Positions 56,154 to 61,743 of a DNA stretch of 64,000 nucleotides are shown piece after piece. This DNA comes from an uncultured delta proteobacterium (GTDB lineage Bacteria; Desulfobacterota; BSN033; UBA1163), in assembly GCA_963827685.1 (NCBI GenBank), contig CAWHBU010000001.1, forward strand, positions 160,001 to 224,000. The letters run 5' to 3'. The position numbers were made by a program, and so were the translations under genes. The notes beneath the pieces were generated by a model. That model worked only from the letters and a program-made list of their open reading frames with translations. It ran no database searches and was not told the DNA's origin. How positions within the stretch are numbered: the stretch's first letter is position 1; the number at the start of each line of letters is the position of its first letter.

Positions 56154-57146
56154 CTAATAATAATTTTCTTTTCCAACTTTACCTCTGAAAACGATGTAGC
56201 TATAAACCGTATACCCTAATACCAAGGGCAAAACAATAATCACTCCCCAAAGGGTGAAGCGCAGGGTTTCTTGTTGTGCCGCCGCTTCCCGAAAGGTGAT
56301 GCTGGGAGGGACGGCATAAGGGTAAATGGAGGCGATGAGACCGAGATATCCCGCGAAGTAAAAGATGACGCTGGAAAAAAAGGGCAGGATCTCACGCCGG
56401 GCTTTCAGGCTTTTGATAAGTGTATAGAAGGCTGCGAGGCCCAGCATGGGGAAGGTCCAGATAAAATAGATTCTGGGTGGACTAAGCCAATTTTTCAAAG
56501 CCGAAGGATAGTGGAAAGGTGTCCAAATGGTAACCAAGATTTGGAATCCCAACACAATAAATGCCGTCCAGAGGGCGCAACGATAGGCCCGTTCTTGGAT
56601 CGCTCCGCTGGTTTTAATGATGAGATAGGTGGACCCCAGGAGGATGTAGCCAGCAATCAATGCAAGGCTCACCATCATTGAGAAAGGGTTCATCCAGTCG
56701 AAGGGGCCACCTGCGAATTGACTTCCTACCACCTTCATTCCAGAAAGAATGCCGCCAAGGGTCAAACCCTGAGCGATCACAGCAACCAGACTTCCGAAGA
56801 AGAAAGCCATATTCCAAGGTCCTTTTCGAGTTGCATTCGCCCGGAACTCAAAGGTCACACCACGAAAGATCAGGCCGAAGACGAAGGTGAGAAGAGGGAT
56901 GTAAAGGCCGCTGAAAAGAACGCCATAGATCATAGGAAAGGCGACAAAAAGGGCTCCTCCGCCAAATACCAACCAGGTCTGATTCGCATCCCATACCGGG
57001 GCAATGCTCCCCATCAATATATCTCGTTCTTCCTCGTCCCGGGCGGCTGGAAACAACATGGCTATCCCCAGGCTGAAACCATCAAGGAGGATGTAGAGGA
57101 TGATGGCCAGAGCTAACAAGCAAGACCATATGACGATGAGATCCAT
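56154..57146 (-). CDS. cydB: Cytochrome bd oxidase subunit II
   Basis: LDGFSLG, PVWDANQTWLV, FRGVTFEFR, YSYIVFRGKV. Confidence 0.96.
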   Translation of the reverse strand: MDLIVIWSCLLALAIILYILLDGFSLGIAMLFPAARDEEERDILMGSIAPVWDANQTWLVFGGGALFVAFPMIYGVLFSGLYIPLLTFVFGLIFRGVTFEFRANATRKGPWNMAFFFGSLVAVIAQGLTLGGILSGMKVVGSQFAGGPFDWMNPFSMMVSLALIAGYILLGSTYLIIKTSGAIQERAYRCALWTAFIVLGFQILVTIWTPFHYPSALKNWLSPPRIYFIWTFPMLGLAAFYTLIKSLKARREILPFFSSVIFYFAGYLGLIASIYPYAVPPSITFREAAAQQETLRFTLWGVIIVLPLVLGYTVYSYIVFRGKVGKENYY

Positions 57147-57179: not shown

Positions 57180-57315
57180 AAATTACAAATTCCAAGTTCC
57201 AAATCCCAAATAAGGTCCAAACGCTAATTTCAAATGGCCGAAACGATTTCGTTTGAGATTCAAAATTTTGGTCATTGGGATTTGTTTGTTATTTGGTGCT
57301 TGGGATTTGGTGCTT
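57180..57315. repeat. 136-bp heptamer-periodic element (copy C) overlapping the cydA stop
   Basis: Gap-free alignment with copies A and B. Confidence 0.9.
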
Positions 57316-58711
57316 TACTTAACTCTGCTTCCATTTTGCCCTTGACCTCTTGAAGGGGGCGCATGCCTGCCGGTAGCTGAACGGGTGGAATGGGGCTGGC
57401 GAGATCCGGCCCCCGCGACAATGTCTTGAGGACGTAATAAAAATAGCTTGCCCCAACGACTGGGAAGATGATCAGAAAGAGGCTCAAAGACCAGATGACA
57501 TTCCCTTCTGGAATCGGAGAAACACCTTCAGCTGTTCGCATGAGATGATAGACCAGCCATGGCTGCCGGCCCACCTCATTGGTCACCCAGCCCAGCTCGG
57601 TGGCGATAAAACCCAGGGGGTGGAGAATCAAGAGGGTTCTCAGGAATGGACGGTGGTCATAGAGATGCCCCCGTCGCCACAGAACTGCAGCCCAAACCAT
57701 AACAAAGAAAAGGATGAACCCGATCGCCACCATCAACCTGAAGCTCCAGAATAGGATGAAGACATTAGGACGATCGTTCCGTGGAAACTCCTTAAGCCCC
57801 GGGACTCGACCATCAAAAGAATGGGTCACCAGCAGGCTAAGACCATTGGGAATATTCATCTCAAAGAGATTCTTCTCTGCTTTCATCTCTGGAAGGGCGA
57901 CAACTGCAAATGAGGCTCCTCCCTCTGTATTGGTTTCCCAATGAGCTTCCATGGCTGCCAATTTTGCCGGTTCATGATCGAAGACTTGACGGCCGCTCAC
58001 ATCACCCAGATAAATCTGAAGGGGTGCGAAAAAGGAGGCCATCACTAAGGAGATGGCTAAAGAGCGTCGGAAAACGGCCGTCTGTTTCTCTTTCAGAAGA
58101 TAGTAAGCACTGATTCCGGCTACGACGAAAGCAGATGTCTCAAAAGAAGCCATCGTCATGTGACCCATTCGGGCAAACACGGAAGGGTTGAAGATGGCGG
58201 CTGAGAAATCGGTGACCATAAACTTTCCGTTCACGAGTTTGTAGCCGGCCGGGGTATGCATCCAGGAGTTCCCAGCCAGAATCCAGAAGGCAGAGAGGAT
58301 GGATCCCAGTGCCACCAGGCAGGTTGCAAGAAAATGGATGCTACGACGGACCCTTTCCCAGCCGAAGAGCATGATGCCGAGGAAACCGGCCTCCAGGAAG
58401 AAGGCGGTCATGACCTCAAAACCCAAGAGAGGAGAAAAGACGTTGCTCACCATTTGGGAAAAACGAGAGAAATTGGTACCGAATTCGAACTCCAACACAA
58501 TCCCGGAGACTACTCCCACTCCGAAATTGATGGCGAAGATCTTCACCCAGAAGCGGTACATCCGGTAATAGATCTCCTGCTTCGTCATTAACCAAAGAAG
58601 TTCCACGACTACCAGGTAGAGGGCGAGGCCAATCGTCAACACCGGAAACAGAATGTGGAACATGGTGGTTACAGCAAACTGAATTCGAGAGAGAAAAACG
58701 ACATCCATCAC
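57272..58711 (-). CDS. cydA: Cytochrome bd oxidase subunit I
   Basis: SRIQFA..FHILF, FGTN, FFLEAGF, PAKLAAMEAHW, EVGRQPW. Confidence 0.97.
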   Translation of the reverse strand: MMDVVFLSRIQFAVTTMFHILFPVLTIGLALYLVVVELLWLMTKQEIYYRMYRFWVKIFAINFGVGVVSGIVLEFEFGTNFSRFSQMVSNVFSPLLGFEVMTAFFLEAGFLGIMLFGWERVRRSIHFLATCLVALGSILSAFWILAGNSWMHTPAGYKLVNGKFMVTDFSAAIFNPSVFARMGHMTMASFETSAFVVAGISAYYLLKEKQTAVFRRSLAISLVMASFFAPLQIYLGDVSGRQVFDHEPAKLAAMEAHWETNTEGGASFAVVALPEMKAEKNLFEMNIPNGLSLLVTHSFDGRVPGLKEFPRNDRPNVFILFWSFRLMVAIGFILFFVMVWAAVLWRRGHLYDHRPFLRTLLILHPLGFIATELGWVTNEVGRQPWLVYHLMRTAEGVSPIPEGNVIWSLSLFLIIFPVVGASYFYYVLKTLSRGPDLASPIPPVQLPAGMRPLQEVKGKMEAELSKAPNPKHQITNKSQ

Positions 58712-58736: not shown

Positions 58737-59450
58737 TCATCTCAGCCTTCCCTCTACCGCCTTCCACTGGATATTCTTGAAGAAGGCTTCAATATAATCG
58801 GCCCTCTTCAACCCATAATCGATCATAAAGGCATGTTCAAAGACATCCAAAATTAAGAGGGGCGTGCAACCAGCAGGGTGTCCCACATCATGCTCATTGA
58901 TCCAGAAGTTGAACAGTTTTCCTGTGAGTGGATCCTGATAGAGAATGGCCCAACCGATCCCTCGCATCGCCCCGACGGCCCTGAATTCCTTTTCCCAGTT
59001 GTCGAGACTTCCAAACTCTTCAGAGATTTTTTTGAACAACTTTCCTGTTTTTTCCAACGCTCCCTTTCCCCCCAGATTTTCGAAGTAATATTCATGAAGC
59101 CTCATTCCGTTGAATTCCCATCCAAATCGCCTCTTCAACTCAGCAAACTCCAGAGAGCCCACTTTTCCCTCCTTGAGCATCTGGTTGAGGATTTCGACGA
59201 GTTTATTCGTATTCGTGACGTAACCCTGGTAAAGGGTGAAGTGGTTTTTTAAAAGGGTGTCGCTGAATCCTTCCATTCCCAAAAGCCGGCTGTAATCTTT
59301 AGTGATATAAGAGATCTTTTCCTCCTTTTTCATTTGAGCGAAAGAGAGGTCGGGTTGCCCGGACAGAAGGGCGATGCTTCCAAGGCCCGACAAGAATAAA
59401 AACTGGCGTCGATCGAAAACCCATGTTTTTAAAATCTCCTTTGTTACCAT
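58737..59450 (-). CDS. Fe/Mn superoxide dismutase family protein with a Tat leader
   Basis: DRRQFL leader; HFTLYQGYV, LHEYYF, DVFEHAF. Confidence 0.9.
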   Translation of the reverse strand: MVTKEILKTWVFDRRQFLFLSGLGSIALLSGQPDLSFAQMKKEEKISYITKDYSRLLGMEGFSDTLLKNHFTLYQGYVTNTNKLVEILNQMLKEGKVGSLEFAELKRRFGWEFNGMRLHEYYFENLGGKGALEKTGKLFKKISEEFGSLDNWEKEFRAVGAMRGIGWAILYQDPLTGKLFNFWINEHDVGHPAGCTPLLILDVFEHAFMIDYGLKRADYIEAFFKNIQWKAVEGRLR

Positions 59451-59517: not shown

Positions 59518-60522
59518 TTATCCTTCTTTCAGGAATTGAGCCGTCTCCTCAGGGAAGGCAATGTTGATAAAGATGCCCGATCCCATTTCAAATCCAGCAG
59601 AGGTGGTCAGCCTCGGAGTAAGCTGAAGATGCCAATGATAGTAATCTTCCCATTCATCTTTGATAGGAGCGGTATGGATAACATAGTTATAAGGGGGATC
59701 ATTCAGTTTGGAATAGAGTTTCAACACGGTTGCCTTTAGAACCTTTGCAAAGGTTTTAGAATCCTCCATAGAGATTAAACCGTAAGAGGCCTGATGGTCT
59801 TTGGGAATGATCCAGGTTTCAAAAGGAAACCGAGATGCAAAGGGCTGGAGGACGACAAATTTCTCGGTATTCATCACAATCCTCTTGCCAAAGCTGAGTT
59901 CCTCTTGAATCGAATCACAATAGACACATCTTCCGTGGTCATCGTAATATCGGGCTGCCTCCTCCAACTTTTTCCGGATATTGGACGGAACAACAGCGGT
60001 TCCAACAATTTGAGAATGAGTGTGCTCGAGTGATGTTCCCGCAGCCTCACCGTGATTCTTAAAGATGATGATCAGTTTGATCCTCGGATCCTCCCGGATG
60101 GCAAGATATCTCTCGCGATAAGCGAGGAGAACCTCTTCCACCTGTTTATCATCCATCAGAGGAAAAAGTTGATTATGAATAGGGCTTCCAATCACCACCT
60201 CGTGGATTCCTACCCCGTCCATCATCCGGAAGAACCCTTTCTCTTCTTTCCTTTCCAAACTTCCTTCTGGAGATAGAGCTGGAAATTTATTGGGTATCAC
60301 CCTTACCCACCATCCTTTACTATCCGCCGGACCGCTGCTTCGATAAGCGAGGGTTTCATGAGGAGTCAAGTATTCATTGCCTGGGCAGAACGGACAGTTC
60401 TCTTTGTAGGGAGGTTTCTCGATGGAGGGCTCAATCCTCTTAAGCTCATGGGGTCTTCTTGAACGCTCTGATGCGATGATGACCCATTCCTTCGTTGTAG
60501 GGTCCTGTCTCAATTGGGGCAT
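59518..60522 (-). CDS. galT: Galactose-1-phosphate uridylyltransferase (GalT family)
   Basis: CPFCPGNE, NKFPAL, HEVVI, GTSLEHTHSQI, YHWH. Confidence 0.9.
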   Translation of the reverse strand: MPQLRQDPTTKEWVIIASERSRRPHELKRIEPSIEKPPYKENCPFCPGNEYLTPHETLAYRSSGPADSKGWWVRVIPNKFPALSPEGSLERKEEKGFFRMMDGVGIHEVVIGSPIHNQLFPLMDDKQVEEVLLAYRERYLAIREDPRIKLIIIFKNHGEAAGTSLEHTHSQIVGTAVVPSNIRKKLEEAARYYDDHGRCVYCDSIQEELSFGKRIVMNTEKFVVLQPFASRFPFETWIIPKDHQASYGLISMEDSKTFAKVLKATVLKLYSKLNDPPYNYVIHTAPIKDEWEDYYHWHLQLTPRLTTSAGFEMGSGIFINIAFPEETAQFLKEG

Positions 60523-60536
60523 AGTGACCTTTCCTT

Positions 60537-60621
60537 AAATGCGGAGTGCCAAATGCGGAATTCTGTAATCCAAAAGTCTTTAAACAAATTGTTTTCCAAT
60601 CCGCATTCTGCATCCCGAAAT
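60537..60621. repeat. Heptamer-periodic inverted element (ATTCCGC type)
   Basis: AATGCGG AGTGCCA AATGCGG ... AATCCGC ATTCTGC ATCCCGA. Confidence 0.75.
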
Positions 60622-60630
60622 ATGAAGGCC

Positions 60631-60792
60631 TTAACCTAAGGCCAGGAGTAACCCTACCACCGCACCCAGCGGAATGGAGATGTAGGGGTTACAGGTAAGG
60701 GCTCAGGAACTTCCGATGGTCCGGAAAAGATAGCTTATACCAAACCCTACAGAACCCCCTATGAGCATACTCAAAAGAATCTTGAGAACCAT
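60631..60792 (-). CDS. Candidate 53-aa membrane selenoprotein (DUF6132-like), in-frame TGA at codon 30
   Basis: AAGGAG RBS; MVLKILLSMLIGGSVGFGISYLFRTIGSS-TGA-ALTCNPYISIPLGAVVGLLLALG; stem-loop at 60648-60692. Confidence 0.75.
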
Positions 60793-60810
60793 GAAACTCT
60801 CCTTATAAAA

Positions 60811-60839
60811 AGAGTATCATCCTGTTGCCAATAATTCAA
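60811..60839 (-). promoter_or_regulatory. Putative sigma70 promoter for the small ORF and galT
   Basis: TTGAAT-17 nt-TACTCT with extended -10 TG. Confidence 0.5.
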
Positions 60840-60933
60840 GAAAAACGATTTTCAAGATGAAAAGGCTTGTATTCGCCGGAAAAGGTGAAGTATAATTTTT
60901 TTAGTTTTAGATGGAGAATGCAAGAACATGTTC

Positions 60934-61016
60934 GAGGAATGAGGATTGAGGAGTCAGGGAATTCAAAAATTCACGAATTGAGGTATTCAAGGAGTTGAAA
61001 TTCCTAAGTCCGAAAT
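60934..61016. repeat. Octamer-periodic element
   Basis: GAGGAAT GAGGATT GAGGAGTC AGGGAATT CAAAAATT CACGAATT GAGGTATT CAAGGAGT. Confidence 0.65.
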
Positions 61017-61743
61017 GGATGCAGGTAAAATGAAAGAGTTCACCGCTGAGGAATTGACATCTTTTGACGGAAAGGAGGGTAGACCCGTCTATATCGCCTT
61101 TCAAGGGAAAGTTTATGATGTCAGGGAAAGCCCTCTCTGGGCCAAAGGCCTTCACATGAACAGGCATCCCTCGGGTAAGGACCTTGCGGGAGAGATCTCC
61201 GCGGCTCCTCATGGAACAGAGGTCCTTGAACGATATCCCCAGGTGGGGGTTTTGAAAAAAGGAGCACCCGAAGAATTGAAACACCTTCCTTCTATGCTTC
61301 AGAACCTCCTTCAAAAATTTCCAATGGCAAAACGCCATCCTCACCCCATGGTCGTCCATTTTCCTATCGCCCTCTTAATGGCCTCCCCCCTCTTTGTCCT
61401 TCTCTCCCTTATCTTCAAGAATCCTTCCTTTGAGATCACCAGCCTCTACCTCCTCATTCTTGGAGCAATCGGCTCTCCCTTTGCCATGGCCACAGGACTC
61501 CTTACATGGTGGATCAATTATCGATTGAAGCTCACCTATTTTGTAAAAAGAAAGATCCAGCTTTCTATCCTTCTTCTGATTTTCGAGATCATTCTCCTCC
61601 TCTGGCGTGGTTTTCAATCCCAGATATCTCATCCCATCTATTTCATCTTGATCGTTATCCTCGCCCCCATCGTTTCCCTCTTGGGTTACTACGGAGGACA
61701 GATGACCTTTCCCATGGAGAAATCAAACGCGGTGACGGAGTGA
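61015..61743 (+). CDS. Cytochrome b5-like heme-binding domain fused to a DUF2231-like membrane domain
   Basis: FDGKEGRPVYIAFQGKVYDV, H..H..GKDL, APHG; HPMVVHFPIAL. Confidence 0.9.
   Translation: MDAGKMKEFTAEELTSFDGKEGRPVYIAFQGKVYDVRESPLWAKGLHMNRHPSGKDLAGEISAAPHGTEVLERYPQVGVLKKGAPEELKHLPSMLQNLLQKFPMAKRHPHPMVVHFPIALLMASPLFVLLSLIFKNPSFEITSLYLLILGAIGSPFAMATGLLTWWINYRLKLTYFVKRKIQLSILLLIFEIILLLWRGFQSQISHPIYFILIVILAPIVSLLGYYGGQMTFPMEKSNAVTE

Follow-up and report, generated by a model that had tools for sequence, protein, structure and literature searches.

A predicted 53-residue membrane selenoprotein related to DUF6132, with a candidate distal SECIS hairpin, in an uncultured Desulfobacterota genome

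Redox-active cysteine pairs in or at membrane helices, with a proline beside the reactive residue and a thioredoxin as partner or fused domain, are characteristic of relays of the CcdA/DsbD type and of the quinone-linked pairs of the DsbB/VKOR type. In the small mercury transport proteins, a cysteine pair lies between two membrane helices. For selenoproteins, Table 1 of a review from May 2026 (PMC13188914) comprises 119 families and subfamilies; its membrane-bound or small prokaryotic members include MerT-like proteins, YeeE/YedE, the SO_0444 efflux transporter, UXX-star, dual-CXXC and TsoA. Of the motifs listed there, that of TsoA (LULAxC, where U is selenocysteine, Sec) comes nearest to the one reported here, since it has the same U-x3-C spacing. 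Here we describe a microgene on the minus strand of a 64,000-nucleotide stretch of DNA from an uncultured delta proteobacterium (Desulfobacterota; assembly GCA_963827685.1, contig CAWHBU010000001.1, positions 160,001 to 224,000), which we call the window throughout. With a probability of about 0.8, as estimated from sequence comparisons, it is a real gene of 53 codons with its own promoter, in which the UGA at codon 30 is decoded as Sec and which encodes a protein predicted to form a helical hairpin in the membrane.

The locus had been noticed in an earlier note on this DNA, made from the letters alone, as a hidden frame for 53 amino acids with a U-x3-C motif, and all of the elements listed there were found on the minus strand (Table 1). 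Counting the ATG, 29 sense codons precede the TGA, which is followed by 23 sense codons and the TAA. The note had also stated that the gene is missed by the listing of open reading frames (ORFs), and indeed the listing under translation table 11 gives just a stub of 29 amino acids (60703..60792). The read-through product has 53 residues and carries the motif GSS-U-ALTCNPY, that is, U30-x3-C34. An AlphaFold2 model, calculated from an alignment in which Cys replaces Sec, contains helices at residues 2-26 and 36-52 with a mean predicted local distance difference test score (pLDDT) of 82.9, and the motif sits within the interhelix loop. A Foldseek search against the PDB returned only generic helical hairpins, none of them at E <= 0.001, and a profile search against the PDB sequences gave a single chance match (E = 0.54).

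The promoter-like sequence proposed upstream of the gene proved to be conserved, despite the fact that a consensus promoter scan did not flag it in the window. The pattern TTGAyT-17/18 nt-(TGn)TAnnnT keeps its position in 29 of 30 orthologous loci, and TTGnnn-13..16 nt-TGnTAnnnT ends 15-21 nt 5' of the ATG, again in 29/30. By eye, most of the 30 orthologues have GGAG-type sites 5' of the ATG. Among RNA runs, none containing the locus was found; one run matched 0.03 of the sampled words.

The read-through protein was used as query against 60 related genomes and the window's own genome. This search yielded 34 strong matches (E <= 2e-12, 54-98% identity) in 33 of the 61 genomes, all within the taxonomic family of the window and each with exactly one in-frame TGA; a strong match was absent from four of 36 family relatives, the completeness of which is 73-94%. 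The 30 orthologues that were extracted all span 162 nt, have the TGA as their codon 30 and end with TAA. In one genome of the same genus the microgene occurs twice, each time with the TGA (G008:C28:25286-25444 and G008:C45:28105-28263). The search was also extended, using a profile of the small domain, to a class set of 68 genomes and a phylum sample of 201 genomes. The former gave 46 matches in 45 genomes, all from one family and all with a single TGA, the latter 27 matches in 25 genomes from eight families, with an in-frame TGA in 27/27. For the phylum in total, the TGA is thus present in 66 of 66 homologues (46 from the class and 20 from seven other families), and no Cys form was found among the 27 matches from the 201 sampled genomes or the 46 matches from the class set.

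In the 30 orthologues, the column entropy past the TGA is 0.585, 0.153 and 1.094 for the first, second and third codon position, and 59% of the codon differences are synonymous. Stops occur in the other two frames in 30/30 and 24/30 sequences. Because of this codon-position entropy, the synonymous excess and the stops in the other frames, the region past the TGA behaves, as far as can be judged from the alignment, as translated sequence.

The window protein matches the Pfam family DUF6132 (PF19628) with 19.9 bits (E = 5.7e-4) over residues 2-52, corresponding to profile positions 5-55 of 60. When 1.84 billion representative proteins were searched with a profile built from 30 Sec forms, 110 matches at E <= 1e-3 were obtained, of which 46 were read; 34 of these homologues were aligned with two Sec forms (36 rows). 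Cys occupies the Sec column in 33 of the 34 homologue rows. DUF6132 itself is matched by 22 of the 36 rows. The fusion proteins that were scanned reach 22.8-73.5 bits on DUF6132, with one fusion (P0016) giving no match at E <= 1e-3, and the Sec-form profile reaches proteins above the DUF6132 cut-off (38-73 bits) with E-values down to 1e-11. In addition, the closest Cys form falls into Protein Atlas clusters named DUF6132. The likeness to DUF6132 that the earlier note had pointed out is therefore real, weak and below the cut-off for the window protein itself, of full length, and bridged by homologues with much higher scores. From these comparisons we infer that the product belongs to the DUF6132 superfamily, the members of which outside the phylum would carry Cys at the Sec position. 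Some Cys forms of 53-55 amino acids (the protein cluster of P0003) are publicly named 'LytS/YehU family sensor histidine kinase', which looks like an annotation carryover from a hydrophobic-helix match.

Two motif types are found among the homologues, C-x3-C-N-P, as in the window, and C-x4-C-P-L-T-A/S-N-P. Among the more distant Sec forms there is a C-x4-U subfamily, in which the partner Cys lies upstream and the Cys34 position is replaced. This subfamily shows that the universally conserved Cys is the residue swapped for Sec in both motif types. The placement of the TGA at a conserved Cys position, proposed in the note, thus agrees with the homologues, which either keep the TGA throughout the phylum or have Cys in its column with the single exception discussed below.

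Public gene calls also end at the TGA: according to the match table, 21 of the 110 profile matches cover positions 1-29 only, and three of these stub-type sequences were read. Together with the 29-residue ORF under table 11, such calls would fit a TGA that is a true stop, in which case the product would be a single-helix peptide of 29 residues and the downstream part a non-coding RNA element or a decayed remnant. We consider this highly improbable, since three-base periodicity and synonymous excess persist in frame beyond the TGA, the downstream part aligns, with its N-P motif and second helix, to Cys-form DUF6132 proteins, and length and stop position are constant in 30/30 orthologues; a remnant would not remain open over eight families. 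A pseudogene and a 29-residue peptide were both rejected on the basis of the coding signal, the protein homology and the fixed length past the TGA.

The genome encodes selA, selB, selD and tRNA-Sec, the latter about 3.4 kb downstream of selA on contig C3, and the C-terminal domain of SelB was found in 41/41 relatives, so that the Sec machinery on which the proposal of the note depended is present. The selD gene (C6:489003-489929, minus strand) is itself a selenoprotein gene (..KKAG-U-ASKVG..) and has a GGA-triloop hairpin 20 nt past its UGA. It might also be imagined that the UGA is read through with another amino acid, by a near-cognate Trp, Cys or Arg or after a lineage-specific reassignment. 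One public call (P0001) indeed has W at codon 30, probably owing to a table-4 style translation. This explanation is no more probable than a true stop: the ordinary genes of the genome stop at TGA while a full Sec system is present, the codon aligns with the conserved redox Cys, and a hairpin of the genome's selenocysteine insertion sequence (SECIS) type accompanies it. Non-Sec read-through was rejected on these grounds.

Some observations weigh against a Sec-decoded DUF6132 relative. The score of 19.9 bits is under the Pfam gathering cut-off of 23.2, and one homologue (P0006) has Arg in the Sec/Cys column. Moreover, the genome is a metagenome-assembled genome with an estimated contamination of 7.98%, and its Sec genes are located on contigs other than that of the microgene.

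RNAalifold, run on the 30 orthologues, predicted two helices in the microgene RNA, helix A and hairpin B (Table 1). Helix A corresponds to the stem-loop starting 10 nt after the TGA in which the earlier note had seen the SECIS. The stem-loop exists, is conserved and covaries; its role as SECIS did not hold up in the same way, since it has no conserved apical loop. Hairpin B, which the note had not listed, lies over the stop codon and four non-coding bases with its loop 66 nt past the UGA, and resembles the SelB-binding hairpins of the genome. As a single sequence, the stem-loop of helix A is unexceptional (z = -1.55; 12 of 200 shuffles fold equally well), and its significance comes from the comparison of orthologues. 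Base pairs were counted in 39 sequences, which represent two taxonomic families and three further lineages. For both helices together, 90.5% of the cells are paired and 8 of 17 pairs are changed on both sides, which is equalled by one of 500 shuffles; for helix A, 87.9% of the cells are paired and five pairs are changed on both sides, at synonymous sites. The covariation score of 0.212 compares with 0.132 +/- 0.009 for shuffles (0/500 reach it) and with 0.024-0.093 when the partners are slid.

The compensatory changes in helix A connect synonymous sites of Cys34 with Leu48 and of Asn35 with Gly47, and in hairpin B a change of codon 52 from UUA to UCA accompanies a change of the stop codon from UAA to UGA (three sequences). 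Codon usage is restricted at these places: Gly47 is always GGR and Leu48 always TTR (30/30), while Ala51 is GCC and Leu52 is TTA in 29/30. The synonymous sites in the stems are constrained (entropy 0.21-0.88), whereas unpaired four-fold sites are free (1.26-1.86), and the 24-nt tip of helix A likewise has no constraint (1.18-1.86). Hairpin B is present in 29 of the 30 family orthologues; its minimum free energy (MFE), calculated for the 17-nt segment, is -8.4 kcal/mol in the window, with a median of -6.7 and a range of -8.4 to -1.2 in the 30 orthologues.

Which of the two helices serves as the SECIS has to be weighed. The model for bacterial SECIS (bSECIS) elements, as described in the review (PMC13188914), requires an apical loop of 3-9 nt, a stem of 4-16 bp, G followed by G or U at the first loop positions, a distance of 16-37 nt from UGA to apical loop and an MFE of -7.5 kcal/mol or lower. 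Hairpin B agrees with this model in loop size, stem length and first loop positions, and the MFE in the window lies within the energy rule. For comparison, we surveyed eight known selenoprotein genes of the genome, namely FdhA, a second Fdh, three MvhD, two Prx and SelD. Five of the eight (two of them near-identical paralogues) have a hairpin of 6-9 bp with a GGN triloop 19-23 nt past the UGA, and the genome-wide background of GGN-triloop hairpins is 0.082 per kb.

A hairpin with a G[GU] loop within 16-37 nt of the UGA has no fixed position shared by more than three of the 30 orthologues, and the one at 66 nt is shared by 29. All 12 distant Sec forms with window-type architecture have a G[GU]-loop hairpin at 65-66 nt, including three in which the stop codon follows only 90 or 114 nt past the UGA. 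Since its position is constant despite the later stops, the distal hairpin tracks the UGA and not the stop codon. In seven further distant forms (six C-x4-U and one other), the distal hairpin is missing and an ordinary one, with its GGUC or GGU loop 19-20 nt past the UGA, is present; in two of the seven the stem is just 4 bp long (by eye).

According to our proposal, SelB would bind to the GGN-triloop hairpin B spanning the stop codon, and helix A would act as a bridge that loops out 45 nt, which would reduce the path from the UGA to the triloop to 10 + 4 + 7 = 21 nt. We favour this split SECIS, and think it on balance probable, because the looped-out path of 21 nt equals the usual distance in this genome. 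Hairpin B separates the Sec forms from their closest Cys relatives: helix-A-like complementarity (>= 6/7 pairs) also occurs among the Cys-form genes (7 of 15, belonging to two lineages), and none of these seven genes has a GC-containing GGN-triloop hairpin at 60-70 nt.

The split SECIS also has evidence against it. At 66 nt, hairpin B falls outside the spacing of 16-37 nt given in the review (PMC13188914). The complementarity shared by the Cys forms implies that helix A may partly result from the codons for C-N-P and G-L, and since the sequences are related, the shuffle and slide controls overstate the covariation. Furthermore, a hairpin with a G[GU] loop is found 25-37 nt past the UGA, at varying places, in 7 of the 12 distant Sec forms, and the window has one as well (CCGC-UGGGU-GCGG, loop 34 nt past the UGA), which is kept in at most three of the 30 orthologues.

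These last hairpins could be read in favour of a conventional SECIS, made up of helix A and a small apical hairpin, in which case hairpin B would be a 3' stabiliser, a weak terminator or an attenuator before galT. Helix A begins at a suitable place 10 nt past the UGA and covaries, the apical hairpin of the window satisfies both the loop rule and the spacing rule, and a consensus scan marks hairpin B as terminator-like. We nevertheless regard this arrangement as somewhat unlikely. The apical hairpin lacks a fixed position among the orthologues, the synonymous sites at the tip of helix A vary freely, and the closest Cys forms retain the helix-A complementarity without hairpin B. The T-run after hairpin B is absent in most orthologues, its distance is fixed to the UGA and not to the stop in the three longer homologues, and the GGN triloop is the genome's own SECIS signature.

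Two side observations concern SECIS hairpins elsewhere. In the C-x4-U subfamily, which comes from other families of the phylum (L135-L138, L140 and L143; ..KCxGST-U-GLTASPW..), the SECIS is encoded by the P-W-S codons, with the GGUC loop 19 nt past the UGA, and the genes adjoin genes for CGGC-domain proteins or ribonucleotide reductase. In the window's genome, a GGN-triloop hairpin lies 16-26 nt past a TGA with open frames on both sides at 44 sites, most of which are probably noise; the set includes FdhA, two MvhD and unlisted candidates such as ..FYNNL-U-IGCQQ.. (example sites, as oriented-strand offsets, are C3(-):1029259, C5(-):5561 and C3(-):89763). Searching for GGN-triloop hairpins may thus be a cheap handle on the selenoproteome of this lineage.

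Concerning the function of the protein, a recurrent association with thioredoxin was found. A C-terminal thioredoxin domain is present in 9 of the 36 aligned homologues, and one has an N-terminal rubredoxin. One operon with a Cys form encodes, on the same strand, a thioredoxin reductase-like protein, a thioredoxin-domain protein, a ferritin-like protein, the DUF6132-like protein and rubrerythrin, and in another Cys-form locus the DUF6132-like gene is followed by the genes for thioredoxin and then thioredoxin reductase. In a different family, a thioredoxin gene lies immediately upstream of the Sec form in 5/5 loci, and a further family has the order extracytoplasmic function (ECF) sigma factor, zf-HC2 anti-sigma factor, microgene homologue and thioredoxin reductase-like gene.

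Because of these fusions and operons, the Sec/Cys pair is probably a redox centre in or at the membrane that is recycled by thioredoxin and serves in the defence against oxidants. Sec30 and Cys34, together with N-P, would lie in the short loop joining two glycine-rich membrane helices, and the pair would cycle between selenol/thiol and selenenylsulfide, with the thioredoxin system re-reducing it. Strict anaerobes would thereby gain a redox-active centre in or at the membrane for the defence against oxygen and oxidants. Only tentatively can a more specific role be suggested, either the reduction of membrane or lipid hydroperoxides or a relay of reducing power through the membrane. Two findings argue against a thioredoxin-recycled centre. 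Lys/Arg-rich tails in the homologues (by eye) suggest a topology with both termini inside; the loop would then face away from a cytoplasmic thioredoxin, across the membrane, except in the case of a re-entrant hairpin or one that relays electrons. In 5 of 29 related loci of the family, moreover, the neighbouring genes are unrelated. A complex prediction for a Cys-form protein and its adjoining thioredoxin (score 0.00) favoured neither side.

The earlier note had left it open whether the protein is redox- or metal-active; the fusions and operons speak for the first part, and the second is distinctly unlikely. In a metal-active form, the selenoprotein would bind or hand over a soft metal or metalloid (Hg, Cu, Fe or Se) in the membrane like the small transporters with a Cys pair. 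The position of the pair between two membrane helices, as in the small mercury transport proteins, would fit such a function, and so would the neighbouring genes for iron proteins (ferritin-like, rubrerythrin and rubredoxin) and a CopD-like protein beside one homologue. A MerT-type 'putative mercuric transport protein' is also among the selenoproteins listed in Table 1 of the review (PMC13188914). However, no mer, cop or ars operon was found around the loci scanned, and thioredoxin or thioredoxin reductase recurs by fusion and operon in at least four lineages.

Within the window, the microgene heads the galT-SOD-cydAB run (SOD, superoxide dismutase), as the note had described, and this is consistent with the strand, the conserved promoter of its own and the synteny. 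The GalT-like gene comes next after the microgene in 19 of the 29 related loci; in others, a SOD-like gene, cydA, or a gene for rubrerythrin or a pyridine-nucleotide-disulfide oxidoreductase lies directly downstream. Further upstream of the microgene, the window contains rubredoxin and rubrerythrin-like genes. Taken together, the gene neighbours in the window's family suggest a part in the defence against oxygen.

Table 1. Features of the microgene locus. Positions are those of the window; features lie on the minus strand unless stated otherwise.
Feature	Position	Strand	Basis
-35 element, TTGAAT	60839..60834	-	sequence
TG of extended -10, closing the 17-nt spacer	60819..60818	-	sequence
-10 element, TACTCT	60816..60811	-	sequence
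Ribosome-binding site AAGGAG, 6 nt 5' of ATG	60804..60799	-	sequence
Microgene, 53 codons ATG..TAA, predicted two-helix membrane selenoprotein, distant DUF6132 relative	60792..60631	-	translation, Pfam, orthologues
ATG start	60792..60790	-	translation
In-frame TGA, codon 30, predicted Sec	60705..60703	-	conservation, Cys alignment
Cys34 codon, likely resolving partner in U-x3-C	60693..60691	-	invariant in 30/30 orthologues
Helix A, arms 60692..60682 and 60657..60648 enclosing 24 nt, starting 10 nt past UGA	60692..60648	-	RNAalifold, covariation
Hairpin B, GGCCUUA-GGU-UAAGGCC, 7-bp stem, GGN triloop 60636..60634, spanning TAA	60643..60627	-	RNAalifold, candidate SelB site
TAA stop	60633..60631	-	translation
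GalT-like gene	60522..59518	-	Pfam
SOD-like gene	59450..58737	-	Pfam
cydA	58711..57272	-	Pfam
cydB	57146..56154	-	Pfam
Cytochrome-b5/DUF2231 gene, divergent	61015-61743	+	Pfam

The neighbourhood contains some further features. The SOD-like neighbour matches the C-terminal domain of Fe/Mn-SOD only and has a twin-arginine-like start (..DRRQFLF..), suggesting that it is an exported superoxide dismutase-like protein. A 150-amino-acid ORF without Pfam match (60907-61359, minus strand) overlaps the cytochrome-b5/DUF2231 gene on the opposite strand and is probably no gene. In the spacer that separates the microgene from the GalT-like gene (60537-60617), AAATGCGGA occurs twice as direct copies, together with an imperfect inverted repeat of 18 nt (78% complementary, arms 40 nt apart), and short repeats resembling CGGAAT/CAGATT are present at the equivalent spacer in many orthologous loci; a tandem-repeat search of this downstream spacer found none. 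Such repeats might serve as an operator, or they might be an intergenic repeat specific to the lineage.

Neither a PF19628 protein nor a two-helix protein with U-x3-C is among the 119 families in Table 1 of the review (PMC13188914), and the microgene is, measured against this list, a member of an unlisted selenoprotein family. 'DUF6132' and 'PF19628' do not occur in the accessible parts of the supplements of PMC12013277 and PMC13326102. A literature search covering titles and abstract openings found no description of such a protein, the only mention of DUF6132 being irrelevant, and no paper pairing a selenoprotein with Syntrophaceae was found in the literature search. The NCBIfam models gave 0 matches to the window protein at E <= 10. 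Membership in TsoA was rejected, since NCBIfam gave no match and a search of the genome with NF045695, the model for TsoA, was likewise empty (E <= 1).

The odds are about even that all parts of the picture hold together, so that a split SECIS at 65-66 nt would represent a second bacterial mode of Sec decoding, used by an unlisted family of 53-residue membrane proteins that is widespread in Desulfobacterota, has thioredoxin partners and is perhaps a minimal membrane peroxidase or electron relay. Gene callers and SECIS-based finders both miss the microgene because it is too short, has a 'stop' after 29 codons and carries its SelB-type hairpin outside the search range of 16-37 nt. If the distal arrangement works, searches built on this range undercount selenoproteins. 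With the proposed role as a thioredoxin-linked membrane redox centre, the domain of unknown function DUF6132 gains a job that can be tested, and a very small membrane protein would be added to the oxygen-defence kit of strict anaerobes among the Syntrophales and other Desulfobacterota.

Compared with the relays of the CcdA/DsbD and DsbB/VKOR types, the window protein is far smaller and has just two helices. The membrane and small selenoproteins listed in the review (PMC13188914) are precedents for Sec in membrane proteins, for very short proteins and for a SECIS near or beyond the stop codon; no sequence relation to the window protein was found with NCBIfam and NF045695. Closest are the DUF6132 proteins with Cys, which are of equal length, likewise have two glycine-rich helices and carry C-P-L-T-C/A-N-P in the loop, its first Cys standing in the Sec column, and rubrerythrin neighbours are found for Cys and Sec forms alike; the window protein differs from them in having Sec for the conserved Cys and in scoring below the cut-off. 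With the canonical bSECIS of the E. coli fdhF type, hairpin B shares the loop and the stem, and it matches the SECIS hairpins of its own genome. It differs in that its loop lies 66 nt from the UGA, with a covarying stem-loop of 45 nt in between, and in that the stop codon and non-coding bases 3' of it form part of the hairpin. In a sister subfamily of this protein the hairpin is fully canonical, with the GGUC loop 19-20 nt past the UGA, and the occurrence of a canonical and a candidate distal SECIS within one protein family offers a natural test of the spacing rules of SelB-dependent decoding.

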